From: an uncultured Gemmatimonadales bacterium
Lineage (GTDB): Bacteria > Gemmatimonadota > Gemmatimonadetes > Longimicrobiales > RSA9
DNA length: 64,000 bases
Direction of reading: 5' to 3'
Assembly: GCA_963783305.1 (NCBI GenBank)
Contig: CAWAMW010000017.1
Coordinates: forward strand, 479,915-543,914
Shown: one piece after another, positions 9,812 to 59,086 of the stretch
Position numbering within the stretch: position 1 is the stretch's first letter
Layout of the letters: the number at the start of each line of letters is the position of its first letter
Position numbers and translations under genes: made by a program
The notes under the pieces: model-generated
What the model was told of the DNA's origin: nothing
Seen by the model: the letters and a program-made list of their open reading frames with translations, nothing else
Database searches by the model: none

Positions 9812-11098
9812 TCAGCCTCTGTCCGGTGCGCCAACGGTAGCGCGCGACCGCGAGCTGGTGGGGGGCGTCGCCCCGGTGCGGAGCCCGGGGCGGAGGTGAG
9901 GACTGCGGGAGTGGCCCAGCTCGATAGGCAGCGCCACACGTACCAGGACGGTCAGGGCGAACAGTCCCATCGCCCAGATCCCGGCCGTCACGGCCAGCTC
10001 GTTCCGGGTCGGGAAGTACTCGACGATCTCGCCCAGGGGAGAGGGAATGAAGCCCGGCACCACCAGCCCCATCCCCTTCTCGATCCAGATGGCCACGAAC
10101 AGCACCAGTGCCGCGGGCATGAGCCAGTGGAAATCGCGCCGGAGCGGGTGGATCGTGAGGATGAGCGTCGCCAGTACGTTCAGCACGATGGCCGTCCACA
10201 CCCACGGCACCAGCGCGTTGTGGCCGTCCAGCCCGAAGAACAGATACTGAGCGTTCAGGCTGTGGTGGGTGGGGAAGTAGAACTTATAGAAGAGCTCCGA
10301 GGCCAGCATGATCAGATTGATCTGGGCGGCCACGGTGGTGATCAGCGCGAGCTTGGAGAACGCGCCGTCGGGGATCTCGTAGCGCGTCTCCATCCGGATG
10401 AATCCGAGCAGTAGAAGCATGAACGCTGGCCCCGCCGTGAACGCCGACGCCAGGAAGCGGGGGCCGAGGAGTGCGGAGTTCCAGAACGGCCGGGCGGGGA
10501 GCCCCGAGAGCAGGAACGCCGTCACCATGTGGATGCTCACGGCCCAGAACACGGAGATGTAGATGAAGGGCACGTACGCTTTCGTCAGCGGCGTACGCCC
10601 CCCGTAGTGGGAGTAGAGGATGTAGAAGGGGATGCCCAGGTTCAGCGCCAGGTAGCCGTTCAGCACCACCACGTCCCAGGCCAGAAGCGAGCGCGGGAAG
10701 TTGAGTCGGCCCACGAACGGGAGCAGGTGCCAGGCGGCGAAGGGGTTGCCGAGGTCGACCACCACGAACGCAAGGCACATGAGCAGGGCGGAGACCGCCA
10801 CTCCCTCGGCGATGAGCACGGCGCGGGAGAAGTCCACGTCCTTGAGCACGTAGGCGGGCAGCACCAGCATCATGGCGGCCGCGGCCACGCCCACCAGGAA
10901 AGTGAAGTTCGAAATGTACAGGCCCCAGCTCACATGGTCGGTCATCCCCGTGGTCTGGAGGCCGTCCCGCAGCTGCACGGAATAGGCGGACGCCCCTGCG
11001 ATCATGATCAGCGTCAGCGCGCCCATCCAGACGTGGTAGCGTCTTGGCCCGGATGTGACGGATCGAAGGGCGTCGTAGAAGAAGTCCTTTAGGTACAT
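9812..11098 (-). CDS. NrfD/PsrC/DsrP-family quinol-interacting membrane subunit
   Basis: WGLYISNFTFLVG, VVDLG, about 10 hydrophobic segments, WIEKG...PGFIP. Confidence 0.9.
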   Translation of the reverse strand: MYLKDFFYDALRSVTSGPRRYHVWMGALTLIMIAGASAYSVQLRDGLQTTGMTDHVSWGLYISNFTFLVGVAAAAMMLVLPAYVLKDVDFSRAVLIAEGVAVSALLMCLAFVVVDLGNPFAAWHLLPFVGRLNFPRSLLAWDVVVLNGYLALNLGIPFYILYSHYGGRTPLTKAYVPFIYISVFWAVSIHMVTAFLLSGLPARPFWNSALLGPRFLASAFTAGPAFMLLLLGFIRMETRYEIPDGAFSKLALITTVAAQINLIMLASELFYKFYFPTHHSLNAQYLFFGLDGHNALVPWVWTAIVLNVLATLILTIHPLRRDFHWLMPAALVLFVAIWIEKGMGLVVPGFIPSPLGEIVEYFPTRNELAVTAGIWAMGLFALTVLVRVALPIELGHSRSPHLRPGLRTGATPPTSSRSRATVGAPDRG

Positions 11099-11104
11099 GA
11101 TCTC

Positions 11105-12229
11105 TCAGTCGGTGAAGTACCAGAACCGGGGCTCGGTGTAGAGGTTCTCCTTGAGCCGGAACACGCGCTTGTTCTCCAGGACCCACCGGATCTCCGAGTT
11201 CGGATCGAGAAGGTTGCCAAAGACCCGGGCGCCCGTGGGGCACGCCTCGGCGCACGCCGGCAGCCGCCCCTCCCGCGACCGCTGGATGCAGAACGTGCAC
11301 TTCTCCACCACGCCCTTCTTCCGCATGCGGTTGCCCAGGTAGTGCTGATTCGGATTCAACTCTTCCACCGGGACTTCCGGAGCGCCCCAGTTGAACCGGC
11401 GGGCCCAGTACGGGCAGGCGCCCATGCAGTACCGGCAGCCGATGCACCAGTCGTAGTCGATCACCGTGATCCCGTCCGGCTCCTGCCACGTGGCCTGGAC
11501 CGGGCAGACGGCCACGCACGGCGGGTTCGCACACTGGAAGCACTGCGTCCCCATGTAGAAGTGCCCCTCCGCCGGGACCTCGTGCTGGTACGTCGCATCC
11601 GCGTGGTCGAAATCGATCACGCCATCCTCCATCTCGAAGATCCGGATGAAGTGGCGGTCGGTGCGGCGGTCGAGATTGTTCTCGTTCACGCACGCCTGCA
11701 CGCAGTTCCGGAACCCCTTGCACTTGGAAATGTTGAACGCGTAGCCGAAGACCACGCCGGGCTGGGCCTCGGTGGTGGAGATGTTCACGTCCACGCCGTA
11801 CCGCAGCCTGGCCAGCCGCTCCAGCCGGAGCACGGTCTCCGCCTTTTCTTCCTCCGTCATCAGCGAGAAGTGGCCCTTGAGGTACTCCTCCCACTCCAAC
11901 ACCTTCGCCTCACGCTCCTCCGCGGTGGCTCCACTCAGCGGCGAGCAGGCCGCCGCCACCTGCGACGCGGCCGCTGTGGCGCCCAGCATCATGCGGAGCG
12001 CGCTCCGGCGATCCAGCGTCTTGTCCAGCACCGTGGAGCCACCCGCCTCCGCGTCCCGGCCGCCACCCCCCGGCGCCCGGTCGCTCCGGGTCGGGACCAG
12101 GGTGGGCGGACCGGACTCCGGCGCCGGCGACAGCCCCGCCAGCCCGCTTTCCGCCAGACTCCGCTCCACCTCGCTTCGGCCCGCATAGCGCAGGACGTCC
12201 TCGAACTCCATATCCCGCGTTCCGCTCAT
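11105..12229 (-). CDS. NrfC/DsrO/PsrB-like iron-sulfur electron-transfer subunit
   Basis: CFQCANPPCVAVCP, CIGCRYCMGACP, KCTFC..PACAEACP; first motif CKGFRNCVQAC; ATGA overlap at 12226-12229. Confidence 0.9.
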   Translation of the reverse strand: MSGTRDMEFEDVLRYAGRSEVERSLAESGLAGLSPAPESGPPTLVPTRSDRAPGGGGRDAEAGGSTVLDKTLDRRSALRMMLGATAAASQVAAACSPLSGATAEEREAKVLEWEEYLKGHFSLMTEEEKAETVLRLERLARLRYGVDVNISTTEAQPGVVFGYAFNISKCKGFRNCVQACVNENNLDRRTDRHFIRIFEMEDGVIDFDHADATYQHEVPAEGHFYMGTQCFQCANPPCVAVCPVQATWQEPDGITVIDYDWCIGCRYCMGACPYWARRFNWGAPEVPVEELNPNQHYLGNRMRKKGVVEKCTFCIQRSREGRLPACAEACPTGARVFGNLLDPNSEIRWVLENKRVFRLKENLYTEPRFWYFTD

Positions 12230-12987
12230 GGGGTGTCTCCTCCGCTCGTGGGGAGCCGGGGGCCCGGGTAGGGATTGCGCGAGGCGATCGCCGGCTGATG
12301 CGGATCGTGGCAGTCGGGGCAGCTCATCACCACTCGTCGGCCACGCCAGCCCTCGAGCCGCTTGCCGTGCGTGCCTGCGGCCCAGTCGTCGGCCTGAGCG
12401 TAGTGGCACTGGGCGCAGAGCCGGTACGCGTGCTCGAGACTGATCCGCTCCCCGCTGGCCAGGACCAGGCTCTGCACGTCGTCCGGGGCGTGGCAGGTGC
12501 TGCAGTGGGTGCCGCTCTCCTCCGGGTGCCTGGGCAGCACATACCGATGGGCGTCCTCGATACGCTCGGCCTGGATCACCGGCCGCCCCGGGCGATGACA
12601 CGAGCCACACGCCTCGCCCGTGGACGGCCGGCCGCGGAGCGAGATGCGAAAGCTCTTCATGCCGAACATTCGTTCGTGGCCCGGTCGGTCAGGTGTGTGG
12701 ACCGCCACCTCGAAGGGCTCGCCCCCAGGTCCCAGTCGCCCCACCACGGGCTCCGATCGCACCACCGCGAGGCCGGGTGGAGACGCCTCCGTCCCGTCGT
12801 CCCCCACCCCATCGACCGGGTCCGATACCTGCCCCGGCGCCCGCTCACCGGCCCATTCCGCCGCCACCCCGTCTCCGGCCGCCGCCGTGTCGCAGCCCAC
12901 GCTCGCCACCAGCAGCAGCGGCAGCAGGACCACTGGCGCCACGGCCACTCCCGTCCGTCCCCACCGCCCCACCTCCTTTCTCCTCAT
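12226..12987 (-). CDS. Tetraheme c-type cytochrome (probable lipoprotein)
   Basis: CGSCH, CSTCH, CAQCH, CPDCH; signal peptide ending SVGC; ATGA overlap at 12984-12987. Confidence 0.85.
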   Translation of the reverse strand: MRRKEVGRWGRTGVAVAPVVLLPLLLVASVGCDTAAAGDGVAAEWAGERAPGQVSDPVDGVGDDGTEASPPGLAVVRSEPVVGRLGPGGEPFEVAVHTPDRPGHERMFGMKSFRISLRGRPSTGEACGSCHRPGRPVIQAERIEDAHRYVLPRHPEESGTHCSTCHAPDDVQSLVLASGERISLEHAYRLCAQCHYAQADDWAAGTHGKRLEGWRGRRVVMSCPDCHDPHQPAIASRNPYPGPRLPTSGGDTP

Positions 12988-13811
12988 CGGTCTCCTCCCG
13001 TCGACGCATCCGAATCGATCCCGGCCCGGCTGAACACGGCCGCCCCGTCGCCCACCTCCACGTGGCACCCCCGACAATTGCTGCGCTCCGGGTGGCCGAT
13101 CCGGATCTCCTCCATGACTCCGATGCCGCCGTGGCACGCGAGGCAGTTCTCCCGCATGTGGATCCGGTGGGGGATGGGCGGAGGCGCTCCCGGCAGCGCC
13201 GGCTCGGGTAGATCGGGCCAGGTCGGCTCCGGCCAATCCACCGGTACGTAGACCGGAGCTTTCCGGTCGAGGGTGTGGCACTGGAAGCAGATCTTCTCCC
13301 CCGCCAGCTCGTCCGGGTAGGGCCGGCCCACCAGCGCATCATCGGGGAGGTGACACTGGAGACAGCCCCCGAGGTCCGGGTGCGGATTCACGGGCGCGTA
13401 CGCGTTGAAGCGGGCCACGAAGCCGCCCCGCCGGTGGCACACGTTGCAGCGTCCGCCCCGGTACTCCTCCAGCGTGAGCCCGTGGGGCACCCTGGGCGGA
13501 CCCCCGGGGAACGCGCGCAGCCGCCGGTACATGGCCGCCGTCCGAGGGTGTGCCCCCCGGCGCGGGTCCGCGTCCGGACGGACGGCGAGCTCACCCGGTC
13601 GGAGGGCGAAGACGCCAGCCTCCCCGGCAATGGGCGTGGCCGGCGCCTCGATGGGGGCCACGGCGGCCTCGTCGGAGACTTCGTGGGCCGGGGCCCCGTC
13701 GGGCGCGATCAGTACTGCGGCGGCCACCATGATGGCGGCCGCGGCACCGATGCCCACCATCCGCCGCGGGAGCTCGCCGTCGTCCGGCTCCCACCCGCCG
13801 GAGTCCCTCAC
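12984..13811 (-). CDS. NapB-like multiheme cytochrome c (5 CxxCH)
   Basis: Two PPxxPH...CxxCH...CxxCH NapB-type units plus a central CFQCH; GTGA overlap at 13808-13811. Confidence 0.8.
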   Translation of the reverse strand: MRDSGGWEPDDGELPRRMVGIGAAAAIMVAAAVLIAPDGAPAHEVSDEAAVAPIEAPATPIAGEAGVFALRPGELAVRPDADPRRGAHPRTAAMYRRLRAFPGGPPRVPHGLTLEEYRGGRCNVCHRRGGFVARFNAYAPVNPHPDLGGCLQCHLPDDALVGRPYPDELAGEKICFQCHTLDRKAPVYVPVDWPEPTWPDLPEPALPGAPPPIPHRIHMRENCLACHGGIGVMEEIRIGHPERSNCRGCHVEVGDGAAVFSRAGIDSDASTGGDR

Positions 13812-16141
13812 GACGCGGCTCCGACCCGCTCGACCCGCACCGCGCAGCTGTAGTCCGGCTGCCCGGAGAGGGGGCAGTGGCTGTCGAGAGTCAGGCGGTG
13901 GATCGGGACGCCCTCGTCGAAGTCCGGCACGAACACCTGGCCGCGCGCGGGTTGCGCACGGTGGTCGATCCGGGCCTCCATCACCAGCGCCCCGCGCCGG
14001 CTGGTCAGTCGGATCCGGTCGCCGGTCCGGATTCCCAGCTCCAGCGCGTCGTCGGCGTTCACTTCCGCGTACGCCCGCGGCACGGCCCGATGGAGGTTCG
14101 GCACGCGACGGGTCAGCGTGCCCGTGCCCGTATGCTCCAGAACGGCGCCAGTGGCAAGCCGGAACGGGTAACTGGCGTCCGGCGACTCGGAGGGTGGCTC
14201 CCACGGGCGCAGCCAGACGCGGGCTCGCCCGTCGGGGAGACCGTAGAAGTCCACCGCGCCCCGCGCAGGATCGGTGGCGGGGTCGTGGGCCGTGCTGAAG
14301 CGCCACCCGGTCTCCCGGCCGTCGACATACGGCCACAACGCCCCCGGCCGACTCCGCAGGACCCGCAGCGGCGGCAGCCGGTCGGCCGGGGCGTCGCGGA
14401 AACGCGCGTACTCTTCCCAGATGCCCGCCGCATGGCCCGCCCGATCCCACGGGAACAGCTTTTCGTGGCCCAGACGCCGTGCGACCTCGATGAGCTGCCA
14501 CGCGTCACCCATGGCCTCGCCCGGCGCCTCGAGCATCCGCTCGAAGTGCTGGATCCGCCGCTCCCCGCTGCCGAACAGGCCTTCCTGCTCGACCCATAGC
14601 GCCGACGGAAGCACCACATCGGCCAGGTCCGTGGTGGCCGTGGGATAGGCATCCGAGACGACGACGAACCGGTCCTCCCGGGCCAGCGCGCTTCGCTGTC
14701 GGTCCAGGTTCGGCAGGTCCACCATGGGATTGGCCCCCTGGATCCAGAGGAACCGGATATCCCCGTCGTCCAACGCCCTGAACATCGACAGGGCATGGTG
14801 CCCCGGCCGCGCCTGGATGTTGGAGACGGGCACGCCCCAGATCCCCGCCGCCCGCTCGCGGTCCTCCCGGCGCACGACGGTGCCCCGGGGCAGGCCGTGC
14901 GCCGACCCGCCGGCCTCGCGCCCGCTTCCGCACCCGCTCGCCTGCGCCGCGAGCGAGAGTGGGCTGTTGCCCGGCGTCCCCACTTTTCCAACCAGCAGGT
15001 GGATGTTGTAGAGCAGGGTGTTCATCCAGGTCCCGCGGGCGTGCCGGTTCACGCTCGCGCCCCAGGCGGTGGTAACGCGCAGCGCCGGGTCGGCGTAGAC
15101 CGACGCCAGCCATCGGATGTCGGCCGCCGGCAGTCCCGACATCCGGGCCGCCCGCTCCGGCGTGTAGTCCGCCAGGAATCGGACCAGGTCGTCGTAGCCC
15201 ACCTCGGCCCCGGCGTCGGGTGTGAGATCCCGATCGGACCGGCCATAGCCGATCCCCGTCTTCCCCTTCCGGAAGCTCAGGTGCCGCTCCACGAAGTCAC
15301 GGTTCACGTGGCCTCGCGCGACGATCTCGTGGCAGATGGCGTTGGCCACGGCCAATCCGCCGTCGGGGGCGAAGAGGAGACCGCGGTCCGCCGCGTAGCT
15401 GGTGCGGGTGGTCCGGGTGCCCACGTCCACAATGCGGCTGCGGGGCTCCTTGTGCCGGTGCTCCAGCACCCGGGAGAACAGCACCGGGTATTCCTCGGCC
15501 ATGTTCGTGTCCCAGAGAACGATCACGTCGGCCTGGTCCAGGTCGTCGTAGCAGCCGATGGGCGCGTCGAGGCCGAAGCTCGCGGTCAGCCCGGCAGCCG
15601 CGCTCCCCGAGGACAGTCGAGCACTCGTATCTACGTTGTTCGTTCCCAGGACGCCCTTGAACAGTTTCGTGGCCACGTACGCCGCGGGAATCGTCCACTG
15701 GCCCGAGCCATAGATGGCCACGCTGTCCTTGCCGTGCCGCGACACCGTCTCGCGCAGTGTCTGCGCAACCAGGTCCAGCGCTTCCCCCATGGGAACCTCC
15801 ACCAGCTTGCCGCCGCGCCGGACCCGGGCGGTGCGCAGGCGGTCCCGGGCGTACAACGCCTGCACGGAGTGGTACCCCTTCGCGCACGCCAGGCCACGGC
15901 TCGCCCGGGACGCGGGATCCCCCCGCACCGCCGCGGCCCGGCCGGCGTCGATCCCCAGGATGAGACCGCAGCCCACGCCGCAGAGGGCGCACGGCGCCTT
16001 CTCCCAGTTCAGGCCCAGTACCCCCAGCGAACGGCCGAGCCCGGCCCCCACCGCCGTCCCCGGCACGAGCGAGGCGGCCGCCATCCCCGCTGATGCCGAG
16101 GCCACCTGCTTCACGAAGGTCCTGCGGTCCGGTCCGCTCAT
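13808..16141 (-). CDS. NapA-like molybdopterin oxidoreductase family subunit, divergent active site
   Basis: Tat signal RRTFVK; KAPCALCGVGC...CAKG 4Fe-4S motif; GSGQWT, GCYDD, NMAE, WVEQEG..ERR colinear with NapA; ARLSSGSA where NapA has ARHCMASA. Confidence 0.85.
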   Translation of the reverse strand: MSGPDRRTFVKQVASASAGMAAASLVPGTAVGAGLGRSLGVLGLNWEKAPCALCGVGCGLILGIDAGRAAAVRGDPASRASRGLACAKGYHSVQALYARDRLRTARVRRGGKLVEVPMGEALDLVAQTLRETVSRHGKDSVAIYGSGQWTIPAAYVATKLFKGVLGTNNVDTSARLSSGSAAAGLTASFGLDAPIGCYDDLDQADVIVLWDTNMAEEYPVLFSRVLEHRHKEPRSRIVDVGTRTTRTSYAADRGLLFAPDGGLAVANAICHEIVARGHVNRDFVERHLSFRKGKTGIGYGRSDRDLTPDAGAEVGYDDLVRFLADYTPERAARMSGLPAADIRWLASVYADPALRVTTAWGASVNRHARGTWMNTLLYNIHLLVGKVGTPGNSPLSLAAQASGCGSGREAGGSAHGLPRGTVVRREDRERAAGIWGVPVSNIQARPGHHALSMFRALDDGDIRFLWIQGANPMVDLPNLDRQRSALAREDRFVVVSDAYPTATTDLADVVLPSALWVEQEGLFGSGERRIQHFERMLEAPGEAMGDAWQLIEVARRLGHEKLFPWDRAGHAAGIWEEYARFRDAPADRLPPLRVLRSRPGALWPYVDGRETGWRFSTAHDPATDPARGAVDFYGLPDGRARVWLRPWEPPSESPDASYPFRLATGAVLEHTGTGTLTRRVPNLHRAVPRAYAEVNADDALELGIRTGDRIRLTSRRGALVMEARIDHRAQPARGQVFVPDFDEGVPIHRLTLDSHCPLSGQPDYSCAVRVERVGAAS

Positions 16142-16845
16142 GACGTCTCCCTACCGCTGGTCCGGGGCAGGACGTGACAGGCCGCACAGGGGCGACCCGG
16201 CTTGTGCTCCCTCTTCTCCTGGTGGCAGAGAAGGCACGCAGGGCGCGCCCGCTCGATACCGACGGTCGTGGCCGCGTCGTGGCAGCCGCCGCCCGCGCAC
16301 GATTCGTGGACCGCCAGCCCGTGGGGTGCGGGGTCCGGGGTGGGGTGGCACCCCGCGCAGTCGGCGTCCGCCCTGTGGTGGTTGACGTGGCACTCGGCGC
16401 AGGACCGCGGGGGCCGGCTCATCCCACCCCCATGACAGTCGAGGCAGGCCACTCCCTGGTGGCGGCCATGCTCGAACGACAGCTCCCGCTCCCGAACACC
16501 ATCCCAGACGGAGAGGGCGAGCGGGACAGCGCGCGTGCGCGGCGCCGTCAGGTCTGCCGGATCGTGGCAGGCAAGGCACCCTGCCGGGGGCTCGTTCCGA
16601 TGGTGGCACGCAGCGCAGTCCGCCGCGGTCCAGCTCATCCGCGACCGGTGCCGCTCGTCCCGGCTGTGGCAGATCTCGCAGTCGACCCGCCGGTGACGCG
16701 CGTGCTCAAACGCGCGCCGCCCCTCGACGGCGCTGACCCCACCCCCCGGGACCGGGCCCTGGGCGCGCAGCGGTGCGGGAACAGGCAGGGCCACCACCAC
16801 GCACAGCGCCAGGACCACCCTCGCGATCCACCCGGAGCGCGCCAT
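16138..16845 (-). CDS. Periplasmic multiheme cytochrome c (8 CxxCH + 1 CX4CH), cytochrome c3/c7-like
   Basis: Signal peptide; FEHxxH repeats; heme motifs counted in the translation; start could be GTG 16881. Confidence 0.85.
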   Translation of the reverse strand: MARSGWIARVVLALCVVVALPVPAPLRAQGPVPGGGVSAVEGRRAFEHARHRRVDCEICHSRDERHRSRMSWTAADCAACHHRNEPPAGCLACHDPADLTAPRTRAVPLALSVWDGVRERELSFEHGRHQGVACLDCHGGGMSRPPRSCAECHVNHHRADADCAGCHPTPDPAPHGLAVHESCAGGGCHDAATTVGIERARPACLLCHQEKREHKPGRPCAACHVLPRTSGRETS

Positions 16846-16917
16846 GGCTACCGCCCCGACTCCCCGACGCCGCCGGGGCACCCAGACTCGCGCCCGAAGG
16901 TCATGCGACGCAGCCGG

Positions 16918-17658
16918 TCACGACCGCCCATGGGTGGCCTTCGGACGAACCTCCGTCGACGGATGACGCCGGTGCCACGCCCGAAGCGTCAGGAGCCCGA
17001 GCACCCCGACGGGCCCTGCAATCCAGACGGTCGCCCCCAGCGCCATGGCCGCCGCCGCCGTGGCGGTGGGCCGGACGCTCGTCCCCCAGATCTCCGGACG
17101 AGTAAACAGGAACGCCGGGGTAAGGACCAGGAGCGCCAGACCCAGCACGAGACCCAGGGCGCGGGCGTCGGGCCAGCGCCGGAACAGGTTGCGAGCGGCC
17201 TCCACGGTCTCCTCGATCGCCCACCACAGGATGAGGGCGGCGGCCAACCAGCCCACCACCGTGACCGCCACCGCCGCCACCCGGCCGCTCATGGCCGAAA
17301 CCGCCGACAGGGTGATCATCATCGCCACGATCCACCCCACCACTACCGCAGGGATGTCGTAGAGTAGCGACAGCGCCAGCCGCCGGAGCGCCCGCTGACG
17401 GGACACGTCGGGGGGACGCCCCAGGTAGGCCAGCAGGGACCCGTGCACGAATCCCACGAGCGAACCGGCGATGAAGAAGACAGAGGTCGTGATGAAACTC
17501 ACACTGGAGCTGAGGCTGCCGGCCGCCACGTGCGCCGTCACCACCAGCGACGCCACCAGGCCGCCGGCGACGCCCCAGGACGTCGCCACCTGCCCCACCA
17601 GCCCCAGCTGTCGAGTAAGGAATCCTGATCCGGTCGGTCCGTCAGCACTGAAGGCCAT
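16918..17658 (-). CDS. Uncharacterised multi-pass membrane protein, first gene of the redox operon
   Basis: About 6 hydrophobic segments; GGAGG RBS upstream; similar to 36041-36538. Confidence 0.75.
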   Translation of the reverse strand: MAFSADGPTGSGFLTRQLGLVGQVATSWGVAGGLVASLVVTAHVAAGSLSSSVSFITTSVFFIAGSLVGFVHGSLLAYLGRPPDVSRQRALRRLALSLLYDIPAVVVGWIVAMMITLSAVSAMSGRVAAVAVTVVGWLAAALILWWAIEETVEAARNLFRRWPDARALGLVLGLALLVLTPAFLFTRPEIWGTSVRPTATAAAAMALGATVWIAGPVGVLGLLTLRAWHRRHPSTEVRPKATHGRS

Positions 17659-17932: not shown

Positions 17933-19219
17933 CTACACGCCCAGGGGGACCGTGAGGATGAAGCGACTGCCTGAGGCCCCCTCGCTCTCCACCGTAACAT
18001 CGCCACCCAGCTGCTGCGCCATGCGCCGCGCAATGCTGAGACCGAGACCCGTGCCCCCGGCCTGCCGGGTCGATGACTGATCGACCTGCCAGAAGGCATC
18101 AAAGACCCGCTCGTGATGCTCCGGCGCGATTCCGGGGCCGGTGTCCTCGACGGCGATGCGCAGCCGGTCCTCCCGCACTCGCGCGGTCAGCACGACCCGG
18201 CCCTCCGCGGTGAACTTCACGGCGTTCGCTACGAGGTTCGAGACGATGCGAAGCAGTCGCTCGCGGTCGCTCGAGATCTCGACATCGTCCACCTCCACCT
18301 CCAGGCGGATCTCCTTCGCCTGCACCGAGGGCCGCAGCATCCCCGTGATCTCGTCGATGAGCGCCGGGAGGTGGATCCTCTCCGCCTGCAGCTCCAGCGG
18401 CCGGGTGTCACTCCGTGCGAAGACGAGGATATCATCGATTATGCGGAGCAGGTGGTCGGCGCTCTGCTTGATGCGGTCGATGTGCGAGCGCTGTCGCTCC
18501 GTCAGCTCCTGCTCCACGCCCATTTCCAGCAGACCGGCGTAGCCGATGACCGCGTTCAACGGCGTCCGCAGCTCATGGGACATCACGGCGAGGAAGTCGG
18601 TCTTCGCCTGGCTGGCGGCGCTGGCCGCGTCGCGCGCCTCCCGTGCCTCCCGAAGTGCGACCTCCATCGCCCGCTGCCGCTGGGCAACCTCCCCGGCCAG
18701 GCCGCGGATGTCGCCGCTCGCGCTCTCCAACTCCCGCTGCAGGCTGTCGCGCACGTCCCGAAGCTCGGCGTTCGCCTCTTCCAGCTGGACCCGACGGACC
18801 TCCGACTCCCGCGCACTTCGCACGAGCCGCAGCGCACGCGGGATCAACGGTGGGAGAGCAATGGCGGTCGCCACCGAAGCCAACGCAGTCACCGCCTTCA
18901 CACCGCCGGCCGCCCAGTAGTCGGGATTCCAGACGGTCCAGACGGCCAGGAAGTGCGTAGTTCCGCACGCCACGATGAAAAGGCCGAACGCCAGGAACAT
19001 CCATTCGAGCGGCAGCCCTCGGACCGCGTACTCCGCCCCCTCGGGGACCTCTCTTCGCGCGCGGACCACGAGCACGAGGAGGGCGACCGCTATGCCGTAA
19101 TACGCCATGCCCGTCAGAGAATCGGAGAGCACGTGGAGCCAGAGCAGATCAGGCTCCCACAGATAGCACATGCCATGCGGCATGAACGAATCCATCGACG
19201 TCGTCTGGATCGCAAACAT
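17933..19219 (-). CDS. Sensor histidine kinase with an ethylene-receptor-type 3-TM input domain
   Basis: PHGMCYLW, SD..AY, FIVACGTTH; H-box MSHELRTPL, N-box NAVKFT, DTGPGI, GTGLGL. Confidence 0.88.
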   Translation of the reverse strand: MFAIQTTSMDSFMPHGMCYLWEPDLLWLHVLSDSLTGMAYYGIAVALLVLVVRARREVPEGAEYAVRGLPLEWMFLAFGLFIVACGTTHFLAVWTVWNPDYWAAGGVKAVTALASVATAIALPPLIPRALRLVRSARESEVRRVQLEEANAELRDVRDSLQRELESASGDIRGLAGEVAQRQRAMEVALREAREARDAASAASQAKTDFLAVMSHELRTPLNAVIGYAGLLEMGVEQELTERQRSHIDRIKQSADHLLRIIDDILVFARSDTRPLELQAERIHLPALIDEITGMLRPSVQAKEIRLEVEVDDVEISSDRERLLRIVSNLVANAVKFTAEGRVVLTARVREDRLRIAVEDTGPGIAPEHHERVFDAFWQVDQSSTRQAGGTGLGLSIARRMAQQLGGDVTVESEGASGSRFILTVPLGV

Positions 19220-55388: not shown

Positions 55389-56591
55389 ATGCAAGACGGC
55401 ATTATAAGACTCGCGCGCCGGGTCGTACCCGGCGCGTTCCTGTTGCTTGCGGGCTGTGCAGACCACCCGCAGACGATGATCGAGCCGGTCACCGAATTCG
55501 GCCGGATCCAGATCGCGCTCTGGGCCACCGTCACCTGGTGGTCGGTCGGGATCATGGTGGTCGTGTTCGGCGCTCTGGCGTTCATCCTGGTACGGTACCG
55601 GGAGCGGCCGGACGGGACGCGGCCGAAACCGATCTACGGCAGCACCATGCTCGAGATCTTATGGACCGTGATTCCGGCGCTGATCATCCTCGTCATCGCG
55701 ATTCCCACGATCCGGGCGATCTTCGAGACGCAGGCCGACCCGCCGGAGGACGCGCTCGTCGTGCAGGCCATCGGTCACCAGTGGTGGTGGGAGTTCCGCT
55801 ACCCCGAGCTCGACCTGGTCACCGCCAATGAGTTCTATGTGCCCGTGGGTCGCCCGTTGGCCCTCGAGCTCCGCTCCGCGGATGTCATCCACAGCTTCTG
55901 GATCCCGCGTCTCGGCGGAAAGAAGGACGTAAACCCCGTCCCCCGGACGCCGGAAGGTGTGGAACCGCTCCACCAGAACGTGATCTCGCTGGAGGTCGAC
56001 TCCACGGGCGAGTACATGGGGCAGTGCGCCGAGTTCTGCGGCACGTCTCACGCGATCATGCGGATGATGGCCATAGCGGTGGAGCCGGAGGTGTTCGACG
56101 GATGGGTCCGCGACATGAAGAGCGCGGTGGAGCCGTCGGGCGAGTCAGCGGCGCGGGGCAGGGAGATCTTCCTGCGGAGCACATGTATCGCCTGCCACAC
56201 GATCGAGGGCACGCCGGCCCAGGGTAAGCTCGGGCCGAACCTGACCATGTTCGGCGAGCGCTGGAGCATAGCCGCCGGTCTCATGGACAACACGGAGGAG
56301 AACCTCACGGAGTGGATCCTCCACGCTCCCGAGCTCAAGCATGGGGTAATCATGCCTGGCGCGAACGTCGGAGCCGGCGGGATGGCGCCGACGGGATTGA
56401 GCCGCGCCGACGCGGAGGCGGTCGCCGCATACCTGGTCGATCTCCGGCGCCCCATGGCGGGGCGGCGCATCGATCTGCTGACCGACGTCGGCGCCCCCAC
56501 CGGCGCCGCCGACACGGCCGACGACATGCTCGTCGCGCCCGCGGAGCCGCTACCCCAGATCACTGACACGACCGCGGGCCAGCCGCGCTAA
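55389..56591 (+). CDS. coxB: Cytochrome c oxidase subunit II with fused cytochrome c (caa3 type)
   Basis: Lipobox LAGC, HQWWW, DVIHSFW, CAEFCGTSHAIM (CuA), CIACH. Confidence 0.93.
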   Translation: MQDGIIRLARRVVPGAFLLLAGCADHPQTMIEPVTEFGRIQIALWATVTWWSVGIMVVVFGALAFILVRYRERPDGTRPKPIYGSTMLEILWTVIPALIILVIAIPTIRAIFETQADPPEDALVVQAIGHQWWWEFRYPELDLVTANEFYVPVGRPLALELRSADVIHSFWIPRLGGKKDVNPVPRTPEGVEPLHQNVISLEVDSTGEYMGQCAEFCGTSHAIMRMMAIAVEPEVFDGWVRDMKSAVEPSGESAARGREIFLRSTCIACHTIEGTPAQGKLGPNLTMFGERWSIAAGLMDNTEENLTEWILHAPELKHGVIMPGANVGAGGMAPTGLSRADAEAVAAYLVDLRRPMAGRRIDLLTDVGAPTGAADTADDMLVAPAEPLPQITDTTAGQPR

Positions 56592-56619
56592 TCCACAGCT
56601 CTCGGACTCGATAGGCACG

Positions 56620-58011
56620 ATGGCAACAGCCGAAGCACACACACCGGTAGGAACGCCGCAGAAGCGAAGCGGTCTCTGGGACTGGTTGACGACGATCGAC
56701 CACAAGAAGATCGGGATCCTCTACGCCAGTACGGCCCTGGTCTTCTTCGTTCTGGGCGGCCTGGAGGCGCTGCTGATCCGATGGCAGCTGGCGAGGCCCG
56801 AAGCCGCCATCATCGATCCGGACCTCTACAACCAGTTGTTCACGATGCACGGCCTCACCATGGTCTTCCTGGTGGGCATGCCGATCGCCGTCGCGTTCTT
56901 CAACTACGTCGTACCCCTCCAGATCGGGGCCCGCAATGTGGCCTTCCCGCGGCTGAACGCGTTCTCGTACTGGATTTTCCTCTTCGGAGGACTCTTCATG
57001 TACTCCAGCTGGTTCATCGGGGCGGCGCCCGACGGCGGCTGGTTCGGCTATGCCAACCTGAGCAGCCGGCAGTTCTCGCCAGGGCCGAACATGGATTTCT
57101 ACGCCCTCGGTCTCCAGATCCTGGGTATCGGGTCCATCGCCGGTGGTGTCAATTTCATCACGACGATCGTGAACCTGCGCGCGCCCGGCATGAAGCTCAT
57201 GCGGATGCCGCTGTTCACCTGGATGGCGTTGGTCACCAGTTTCATCATCGTGACGGCGCTCCCCGTTCTGGCAGTCGCGCTCTTCATGCTGACGTTCGAC
57301 CGCTTCTGGGACACGAACTTCTTCAACGTCGCGGCGGGCGGCGATCCGATCCTCTGGCAGCACCTGTTCTGGCTGTTCGGCCACCCCGAGGTCTACATCC
57401 TGATCCTGCCGGCGTTCGGGATCGCCAGCGACGTGATCCCCACGTTCAGCCAGAAGCCGCTGTTCGGCTATGCGATCATGGTCTTCAGCGGTGCGCTCAT
57501 CGGGTTCATCAGCTGGGGCGTGTGGAGCCACCACATGTTCACCACCGGGCTCGGCCCCATTGCCGACTCGTTCTTTACCATTTCGACCATGATCATCGCC
57601 ATTCCCACAGGCGTTAAGATCTTCAACTGGCTGGCCACGATGTGGGGTGGGGCCATCAAGTTCACCACGTCCATGATGTTCGCCATCGCCATGGTGGCGC
57701 TGTTCACCATTGGCGGGATCAGCGGGATCATGCACTCGGCCTCCCCCGCCGACCTCCAGCAGCACGACACCTACTTCGTGGTGGCCCACTTCCACTACGT
57801 CCTGATCGGTGGACTGATCATGGGCGTGTTCAGCGGCTTCTACTACTGGTACCCCAAGGTCACCGGTCGACTCCTCAGCGAGACGCTGGGCAAGTGGCAC
57901 TTCTGGCTCTTCGTGATCGGCTTCAACGCCGTGTTCATGCCCATGCACTGGGTGGGGCTGCTCGGCATGCCCCGGCGCGTGTACACCTACGCCGAGGAGC
58001 TGGGGGTCGGT
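56620..58011 (+). CDS. coxA: Cytochrome c oxidase subunit I (A1 type), truncated at the 3' end by a junction
   Basis: DHKKIG, TMHG, GHPEVY, WSHH, HFHY, GMPRRVYTY; homology stops there, before the last TM helix. Confidence 0.9.
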
Positions 58012-58012
58012 C

Positions 58013-58226
58013 GCGTGGATGGCCGACGCGGCCTACTCTGCACGCAGGCCGACGCGAGAGGTTCCCCGAGAAGGGTGGCACGCCAAACCCCGCAAAGCGC
58101 ATCTGCGCCAAGTGCGCCGTCCGCCACACCTGCCTCCAGTACGCCTTCGCCCGCCCCGAGCTCGACGGCGTGTGGGGCGGCACCACGTACAAGCAACGCC
58201 AGCAGTTGCGCAGGAGGTCCGCCTGA
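58013..58226 (+). pseudogene. whiB: WhiB-family transcription factor, 5'-truncated and frameshifted
   Basis: AWMADA..LCTQAD / FPEKG...AKRICAKCAVR..CLQYA...GVWGG across frames. Confidence 0.85.
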
Positions 58227-59086
58227 TGACCGTCACACTTGGCCCCCCGTTCTCCTACTACGGCGGGAAAACGACGATGGCCGCCGGAATCGCCTCCCTC
58301 CTCCCCGCTCACACTCACTACGTGGAGCCGTTCGCCGGATCCCTCGCAGTGCTGTTGGCGAAACCTCCGTCGGCTTTCGAGACGATCAATGACCTCGACA
58401 ACAACATCGTCACGTTTTGGCGAGTCCTCCGCGACCACCCGACACTCATGCGCGTCTGCGCACAGACCCCCCACTCCCGCGCCGAATACCTCGCCTGTCA
58501 ACGAGACTTTGACGCCCCCAGCATCACCGACGTCGAACAAGCCCGCCGCGTCTGGACCAACCTGACCCAAGGCCGCGCCGGCACCCTCACCGGCACCGGA
58601 TGGCGACACATCCAAAACCCCGAAGCCCACCGTTTCTCCATGCACGGCTACCTCGATGCCTACGTGGACCGGATGAGGAGCGCCGCCGGCCGCCTCGCCA
58701 ACGTCTCCCTCGAGGCGCGCGACGCCCTCGACGTCATCCGCGACTACGGCAAGCACCCCACCATCTGCATCTACGCCGACCCGCCCTACCTCGGCGCCAC
58801 CCGCAGCTCGCGCCAGTACCTCCACGAGCTCGACGGCGTCGAGGACCGCGAGCGGCTCGCCGAGGCACTCCACGACTGTCAAGCATCAGTGGTCTTGTCC
58901 GGCTATCACTCTGACCTCTACGCCTCCCTCTACGCCGACTGGCACCACACCGAGGTCGCCGCCTTCACCGGGCAATCCAACGCCAACGGCCGCCGCACCG
59001 AGGTCCTGTGGTCCAACCGCCCCCTCGCCCACGCCGATACCCTCGACTTCACCGACGACGACAAGGAAGGGATCACCGCCTCGTGA
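58226..59086 (+). CDS. Phage DNA adenine methyltransferase (Dam/D12 class)
   Basis: YYGGK, YVEPFAGS, NDLD, YADPPY, EVLWSN; TGATG coupling at both ends. Confidence 0.9.
   Translation: MTVTLGPPFSYYGGKTTMAAGIASLLPAHTHYVEPFAGSLAVLLAKPPSAFETINDLDNNIVTFWRVLRDHPTLMRVCAQTPHSRAEYLACQRDFDAPSITDVEQARRVWTNLTQGRAGTLTGTGWRHIQNPEAHRFSMHGYLDAYVDRMRSAAGRLANVSLEARDALDVIRDYGKHPTICIYADPPYLGATRSSRQYLHELDGVEDRERLAEALHDCQASVVLSGYHSDLYASLYADWHHTEVAAFTGQSNANGRRTEVLWSNRPLAHADTLDFTDDDKEGITAS

Follow-up and report, generated by a model that had tools for sequence, protein, structure and literature searches.

The described systems closest to the locus analyzed here are the periplasmic nitrate reductase NapAB with its partner NapD, alternative complex III (ACIII, ActABCDEF) and the Qrc complex (QrcABCD). 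NapD proofreads the export of cofactor-loaded NapA by twin-arginine translocation (Tat). In the accessible part of PMC6303296, the cofactor-less QrcB and ActB are structural parts of Qrc and ACIII, respectively. The available sections of a survey of the dimethyl sulfoxide (DMSO) reductase superfamily, whose sequences were screened for the expected ligand, report three independent losses of the molybdenum/tungsten (Mo/W) cofactor, in FhcB, Nqo3 and ActB (PMC10100899). Here we describe a locus at positions 9812-17658 of a 64,000-nucleotide stretch (below, the window) of contig CAWAMW010000017.1 from an uncultured Gemmatimonadales bacterium, in which the Mo-ligand cysteine of a NapA-derived protein is replaced by serine. 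On balance, and with caution, we lean towards the view that five core genes of this locus form a membrane-bound quinol:cytochrome c oxidoreductase, with the NapA-derived subunit as a predicted cofactor-free Fe-S scaffold.

The NapA-derived subunit (13808..16141, minus strand, 777 amino acids) scores 712 and 703 bits on the NapA hidden Markov models (HMMs), below their cut-offs of 904 and 931, and its closest PDB matches, by sequence and by model, are NapA. The AlphaFold model (predicted local distance difference test, pLDDT, 88.7) has a template modeling (TM) score of 0.91 to 3ML1_A. In the alignment to 3ML1 and 2NYA, the ligand Cys177 of the ARHCMAS motif is replaced by Ser (ARLSSGS in the window), a change absent from the first-pass annotation, which was made from the letters of this DNA alone. 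Other changes are N173S, M178S, G211D, H218Y, D262G, M362A, Q366R, R666A, W671T, H672G, F740D and N748H, while the Tat signal, the four [4Fe-4S] cysteines, the bridging Lys88 and Tyr90 are retained. Of the invariant columns, 13 of the 31 in cofactor and substrate motifs are changed, versus 29 of the remaining 253 (Fisher p 8e-5); this p value is only indicative, as the motif list follows the E. coli NapA annotation and some motifs had been seen beforehand. Among the channel residues named in the available part of PMC12769810, the Glu and His equivalents are gone and the two Arg and the Asp equivalents are retained.

The same loss recurs among the relatives of this protein. The ligand Cys is present in 95 and absent in 26 of 121 sequences (the query and its 120 best homologues); the named homologues belong to Gemmatimonadota, and many of the top ones carry a nitrate reductase label. 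A larger set held 210 distinct near-full-length proteins, or 203 without seven outgroup NapAs, and 40 of these 203 lack the Cys (Cys-less proteins); in all 40, the motif columns are more altered than the other columns. They were compared with 162 Cys-bearing proteins, leaving out the seven outgroup NapAs and P0112, which bears the Cys and is nested in the Cys-less clade. Among the 288 columns invariant in the Cys-bearing proteins, 41 were mostly lost and 192 were kept in at least 90% of the Cys-less ones. Three [4Fe-4S] ligands are present in 40/40 Cys-less proteins and the fourth in 39/40, with one truncated sequence. Judging from its residue losses, the window protein is likely a pseudoenzyme, predicted to lack the Mo/W-bis(pyranopterin guanine dinucleotide) (bisPGD) cofactor.

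Which genes accompany this subunit in other genomes? Of 301 genomes from the order, 38 matched the NapA-like protein; six congeners gave no match. Among 40 regions around the napA-like gene, 24 hold the five core genes in order. Most of the remaining regions meet a contig edge or carry a NapA of a more distant type, and two (L045, L060) lack part of the core even though their sequence extends far enough to hold it. In a scan with the anchor alignment (best 79 loci, 481 relatives), the five genes stand in order in 72 of the best 79 loci. The conserved unit is five genes, encoding the NapA-like protein, a NapB-family cytochrome, a tetraheme lipoprotein, a DsrO-like Fe-S protein and a DsrP/NrfD anchor. 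The first-pass annotation had taken seven genes as one unit, an extent that we reduce to these five. Its pairing of a NapAB-derived scaffold with an NrfCD/DsrOP-type quinol module is conserved across genomes.

The matches listed include at least 43 Bacteroidota loci, all with napD and Cys, and single loci from Acidobacteriota, Rokubacteria, Chloroflexota, Fibrobacterota and Zixibacteria. Because the five-gene order, napD and Cys are shared by Bacteroidota, Gemmatimonadota and several other phyla, the ancestral unit is napD-napA-napB*-tetraheme-FeS-DsrP. To judge from its genes, the Cys-bearing, napD-linked operon likely encodes a nitrate reductase whose electrons come from a quinol module of DsrOP type and not from NapC or NapGH; in the ancestor, the same module would have fed nitrate reduction. 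In the trees, the window protein nests among the Cys-bearing NapA of this operon family, in a Gemmatimonadota-centered clade from which the Cys, further residues for cofactor and substrate and, in most cases, napD have disappeared. The independent assembly on a NapAB scaffold proposed in the first-pass annotation is not supported as an assembly around a Mo-less scaffold: in many phyla the module already served a NapA with both Cys and napD, and the pseudoenzyme came from a later loss within this operon family.

The loss of Cys is accompanied by further changes in the operon, counted only at loci with enough flanking DNA. The napD gene lies beside napA in 1/15 Cys-less loci, 20/21 Cys-bearing Gemmatimonadota loci and 47/48 other Cys-bearing loci. 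The NapB-like protein has five hemes in 17/17 Cys-less and 12/25 Cys-bearing Gemmatimonadota loci, and in none of 48 Cys-bearing loci outside this phylum. A gene with at least eight hemes is found nearby in 13/14, 8/19 and 0/43 loci of the same three groups, and a barrel gene of the cytochrome cluster in 10/17, 5/25 and 0/48. An SPFH (stomatin-type/Band 7) gene adjoins 14/15, 1/19 and 0/45 of them; it is highly conserved and sits after the anchor gene (e.g., L051:11993-13099 and L054:3649-4680). The window is the Cys-less locus without it, and its genome holds only a distant paralogue (150 bits versus ~580-650). In one locus (L086) the Fe-S/anchor pair is duplicated in tandem, with the SPFH gene between the copies.

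How often was the Cys lost? Trees came from FastTree and a quick IQ-TREE run (LG+G4), both of which tend to join long branches. With the motif columns left out, the trees need 4-5 changes of Cys state. A single origin of all Cys-less proteins was rejected in the approximately unbiased (AU) test (p 1.7e-6), and one clade was not rejected once P0071 was left out (p 0.12). The outcome therefore implies at least two origins of Cys loss. Loss of the molybdenum cofactor (Moco) pathway was considered as its cause and rejected, moaC being present in 34 of 38 genomes, including 8 of 9 Cys-less ones. Two loci combine the characters differently. In L079, napA has its Cys, napD was found neither in the locus nor in the genome, an SPFH gene and a 16-heme gene are neighbors, and the nearest relative, P0071, is Cys-less; this is possibly an intermediate state. 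The opposite intermediate is L031 (genome G120), where napA is Cys-less and napD lies directly upstream.

The four partners of the NapA-derived subunit are all encoded on the minus strand. The membrane-anchored NapB-family cytochrome (12984..13811) has five CxxCH motifs and no Pfam NapB match; its family label holds because five of six tested orthologues pass the Pfam NapB cut-off. The alignment shows two NapB-like dihaem repeats with the fifth, central heme motif as an insertion. With its model, Foldseek returned only NapB 3ML1_B (E 9.9), a wide fold search gave matches limited to the N-terminal helix (Z ≤ 3.2), and a sequence search of the PDB did not recover NapB. The tetraheme cytochrome c (12226..12987, four CxxCH) is likely a lipoprotein: its hydrophobic signal ends in Gly-Cys within an imperfect lipobox, and Cys stands at the same place in the 14 homologue N-termini examined. 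The DsrO/NrfC-like Fe-S subunit (11105..12229, 374 amino acids), likely a Tat lipoprotein with a twin-Arg signal and Cys95, reaches 183.5 bits on the DsrO HMM (cut-off 200). It keeps 15 of 16 cluster cysteines; the second Cys of the first motif is replaced by Phe/Tyr, and position 173 is Tyr or Phe in 104/104 aligned homologues.

The NrfD-family membrane anchor (9812..11098, 428 amino acids) passes the DsrP model NF045798 with 395 bits (cut-off 350), and is 46% identical to the DsrP and 24% identical to the ActC-like protein of its own genome. Its candidate quinol site, Tyr61, Asp115, Ser137 and Asp142, and a mid-membrane Lys341 are conserved in 103-105 of about 105 homologues. In spacing they agree with the DsrP1 residues Tyr52/Asp106/Ser124/Asp129/Lys329 given in the available part of PMC8076601. 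In sequence, the DsrP-like anchor has an intact quinone-site signature.

We infer the function, assembly and direction of electron flow of the complex from these sequences. Menaquinol would be oxidized at the DsrP-like subunit, which would hand electrons to the Fe-S subunit. From there they would travel along the hemes of the tetraheme lipoprotein and of the NapB-like protein and exit to multiheme carriers in the periplasm, for instance the 9-heme cytochrome encoded next to the core; probably they would then reach a porin-cytochrome set encoded on contig C2 of the same genome. The pseudo-NapA may act as a structural Fe-S cap that stabilizes the NapB-like hemes, by analogy with cofactor-less ActB and QrcB. 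Electron transfer from quinol to multihemes is likely, rather than nitrate reduction, because the Cys, cofactor residues and napD are lost while the subunit stays intact and conserved. Since NapD proofreads the export of cofactor-loaded NapA, its loss fits a cofactor-free subunit.

The two upstream genes lead to this porin-cytochrome set, with which they travel, and occur without the core in congeners. The accessory membrane protein (16918..17658, minus strand, 246 amino acids) shows six hydrophobic segments by hydropathy and no Pfam or NCBIfam match. Its unnamed family (59 matches) occurs in 54 of 301 genomes of the order, often in several copies, and has members in all six congeners that gave no napA-like match. 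In four relatives without a napA-like gene, the membrane gene lies directly before a 9-heme gene, and in G138 and G006 this pair is ~3.5 kb from a cluster of 16-heme, barrel and multiheme-lipoprotein genes. Several Cys-less relatives have a multiheme/barrel cluster, with a small cytochrome inside, directly upstream of napA. The periplasmic 9-heme cytochrome of the window (16138..16881, minus strand, alternative ATG start at 16845) has cytochrome c3 Pfam matches. G195 carries a 9-heme/8-heme/barrel/16-heme cluster; the window cytochrome is 40% identical to its 8-heme member, and homologues of the three other genes lie on contig C2 of the window's genome. The 9-heme protein is a homologue of the small cytochrome of the porin-cytochrome set and likely an acceptor or shuttle. 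At C2:434695-444243 lie genes for a 9-heme lipoprotein, a putative outer-membrane barrel, a 16-heme and a 6-heme protein, likely a porin-cytochrome conduit common to many relatives. A second copy of the membrane-protein family occurs at C15:153363-163978, together with 17-heme, monoheme and 11-heme genes, a two-component system and a cytochrome b-like membrane gene.

At the locus itself, the open reading frames (ORFs) agree with the first-pass annotation in number (seven), order, span and common orientation. Its ATGA/GTGA coupling of the middle five genes appears as four 4-nucleotide overlaps, ATGA at the 9-heme/napA, napB-like/tetraheme and tetraheme/Fe-S junctions and GTGA at napA/napB-like. 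The Fe-S gene is followed by nrfD after 6 nucleotides, and the membrane gene by the 9-heme gene after 36 (GTG start) or 72 nucleotides (ATG start). The 18 heme motifs that it had counted were found again, 17 of them canonical: eight CxxCH and one CX4CH in the 9-heme cytochrome, five in the NapB-like and four in the tetraheme protein. Pfam and NCBIfam searches bore out that napC, napGH, napD and Moco genes are missing among the seven genes. No sigma-70 promoter was found in the region; its two terminator-like sites and its FNR-like boxes are at chance level, and no such box lies upstream. Just upstream on the same strand (window 17933-19219) is a histidine kinase gene with an ethylene-receptor-like N-terminal domain (PF25487), and at 55389-59086 lie ORFs resembling, from reading alone, cytochrome c oxidase subunits II and I.

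Could the same Mo-free complex run the Qrc way, passing electrons from periplasmic or extracellular donors through the multihemes to menaquinone, for example for sulfite reduction? The 10-helix NrfD group holds both quinone reductases (QrcD) and quinol oxidases (ActC), according to the covered part of PMC6303296, and a DsrA-like ORF stands beside DsrP and DsrO homologues on contig C16 of the same genome. However, the Qrc HMM scores are far below cut-off and the ancestral operon ends in a nitrate reductase, an end point that implies quinol oxidation. We consider the reverse direction unlikely, though deserving of attention. At C16:82615-85960 the DsrA-like ORF directly follows the genes for the DsrP and DsrO homologues, and other dsr-type ORFs are close by; from these genes, the Gemmatimonadota host may carry dissimilatory sulfite reduction.

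It is rather improbable that the NapA-like subunit still binds the Mo cofactor, either through Ser or without any ligand from the protein, and has a different substrate. The window has Ser in place of the ligand Cys, and in DMSO reductase the Mo is coordinated by Ser. Several cofactor contacts are kept, and the genome has Moco genes (moaC, moeA and a mobA-like gene below cut-off). According to the accessible part of PMC12769810, NapA engineered to carry Asp or Ser in place of the Cys retains slow activity. Nevertheless, 13 of the 31 motif columns are lost in the window and napD is gone. Within the clade, the ligand position and other contacts vary freely and no new conserved active-site set appears. 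Across the 40 Cys-less proteins the position holds Y16, S8, G5, E4, R2, H2 and others, and with so many different residues there is no conserved substitute ligand. The molybdopterin-family matches of this genome, which is 96% complete, are the window gene, an FdhF-type protein with its Cys, an ActB-like protein and NuoG. A canonical napA or napD elsewhere in the genome was looked for and neither was found, napD being sought by Pfam NapD and by a profile from relatives. Likewise, no NarG or NosZ and no convincing NrfA match was found in the genome, which also has dsr genes and many multiheme genes.

A little less probable again is that napA is a slowly decaying relic and that only the cytochrome-Fe-S-anchor module matters. 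Here the substitution rates bear on the question. The ratio of nonsynonymous to synonymous rates (dN/dS, Nei-Gojobori; dS close to saturation in this GC-rich DNA) is 0.11-0.45 for napA when the 14 pairs of lowest divergence are taken from 120 Cys-less pairs; the three among them that include the window give 0.27, 0.29 and 0.35. The median of napA dN relative to nrfD dN is 2.0 for Cys-less and 0.98 for Cys-bearing pairs, twice as high, which favors decay. More than one loss has occurred, the gene was not found in six of six congeners, and locus L075 has the Fe-S/anchor/cytochrome module, an SPFH gene and a barrel/multiheme cluster with no napA upstream; furthermore, the near-full-length filter would conceal broken copies. 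Yet the dN/dS values are well below 1, the Fe-S ligands and 192 of 288 invariant columns are kept in at least 90% of the Cys-less proteins, and their lengths stay at 729-799 amino acids despite identities down to 53%. Constraint on napA in the Cys-less lineages is relaxed, but purifying selection is clearly present. Finally, a main role as a scaffolded sensor of redox state or as an organizer of the membrane, tied to the SPFH protein whose gene adjoins 14 of 15 Cys-less loci, is very improbable for the complex, as the window has no SPFH gene, its genome has only the distant paralogue, and all redox-chain motifs are retained.

Several observations weigh against a cofactor-free quinol:cytochrome c oxidoreductase feeding the porin-cytochrome set. 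Loss of the Cys alone is no proof of inactivity, because the engineered variants stay slowly active, and Lys88, Gln148, Arg175, Asp192, Trp210, Asn213, Glu216, Arg408 and His670 are still present in the window protein. The direction of electron flow is not fixed by sequence. The gene associations are not independent counts, because most Cys-less loci form one clade, and the genome of L075 has a Cys-bearing napD-napA elsewhere, which its module could borrow. The porin label of the barrel rests on one weak Pfam match in a homologue (E 1.7e-4, below cut-off), and the link to the C2 genes comes from homology and neighborhood in relatives, not from this window.

If the cofactor-free oxidoreductase is nevertheless accepted, a broader history can be proposed tentatively, as one we regard as rather less probable than its opposite. 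The ACIII/Qrc type of complex would have arisen repeatedly and recently, and be seen here in mid-transition: a DsrOP-fed nap operon would have lost Mo catalysis and NapD at least twice, gained the fifth heme and the SPFH protein, and been rewired to porin-cytochrome extracellular electron transfer in Gemmatimonadota. A cofactor loss within NapA, with close relatives still intact at ~60-68% identity, would offer a direct before-and-after pair for the origin of Mo-less ACIII/Qrc subunits. Surveys of the nitrogen cycle are affected as well, since nitrate reductase is the label on many of the top homologues and the ligand is missing from 26 of the 121 closest proteins. The Cys-bearing form suggests that NapA can be fed in a third way, which is open to test because this operon occurs in cultured marine Flavobacteriaceae, for example Zobellia or Maribacter.

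The literature search, with most subscription papers outside its reach, found no description of the operon or of a Cys-less NapA. The operon is not described in the covered parts of PMC11896075, PMC10732223 and PMC6264515, nor is a Nap-linked module listed in those of the NrfD surveys PMC8076601 and PMC6303296. The covered part of PMC10732223 has an ACIII-like cluster downstream of nap genes that includes actD, a gene absent from the window operon. None of the three cofactor losses in the available sections of PMC10100899 is NapA-derived.

Compared with NapAB-NapD (3ML1, 2NYA, 1OGY, 2NAP), the window shares the NapA fold, the Tat signal, the [4Fe-4S] ligands, the bridging Lys and a NapB-family gene directly downstream, but has lost the Mo-ligand Cys, many cofactor and substrate residues and napD. 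Its NapB-like protein is a doubled NapB that is anchored in the membrane and carries an additional, fifth heme, and its predicted feed is of DsrOP type instead of NapC or NapGH. The Cys-bearing napD-napA-napB*-tetraheme-FeS-DsrP operon has the same five genes in the same order, but keeps Cys and napD and is likely nitrate-reducing. With the DsrJOP half of DsrMKJOP, the window has in common an anchor above the DsrP cut-off and a DsrO-like Fe-S subunit; it has no DsrM, DsrK or DsrJ in the operon, and the dsr-linked DsrP/DsrO pair lies elsewhere, on C16.

With ACIII it shares an NrfD-family anchor, an Fe-S subunit, multihemes and a Mo-bisPGD-fold domain, cofactor-less in ACIII and predicted so in the window. 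In contrast to ACIII, the Mo-fold subunit of the window descends from NapA, still has [4Fe-4S] ligands of its own and is unfused: the Mo-fold and Fe-S genes, joined in ActB, are separate, with two cytochrome genes between them. The anchor is of DsrP type, and ActD, ActE and ActF are absent from the window operon. ActB itself is placed near ArrAB in the available part of PMC10100899. The same genome has two ACIII-type operons, at C2:704506-712190 and C7:370343-378101. Qrc likewise combines a multiheme cytochrome, a Mo-fold subunit, an Fe-S subunit and a 10-helix NrfD-type anchor, but the scores against cut-offs give no orthology (QrcB 66/440, QrcC 146/400 and QrcD 43/570 bits), and the window core has two cytochromes instead of one. 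The ACIII/Qrc-like character proposed by the first-pass annotation stands in that the Mo-fold subunit is likely cofactor-less. By sequence comparison, the complex likely works like ACIII and Qrc while being a member of neither, with a subunit that is NapA by descent and fails the NapA sequence tests for catalysis.

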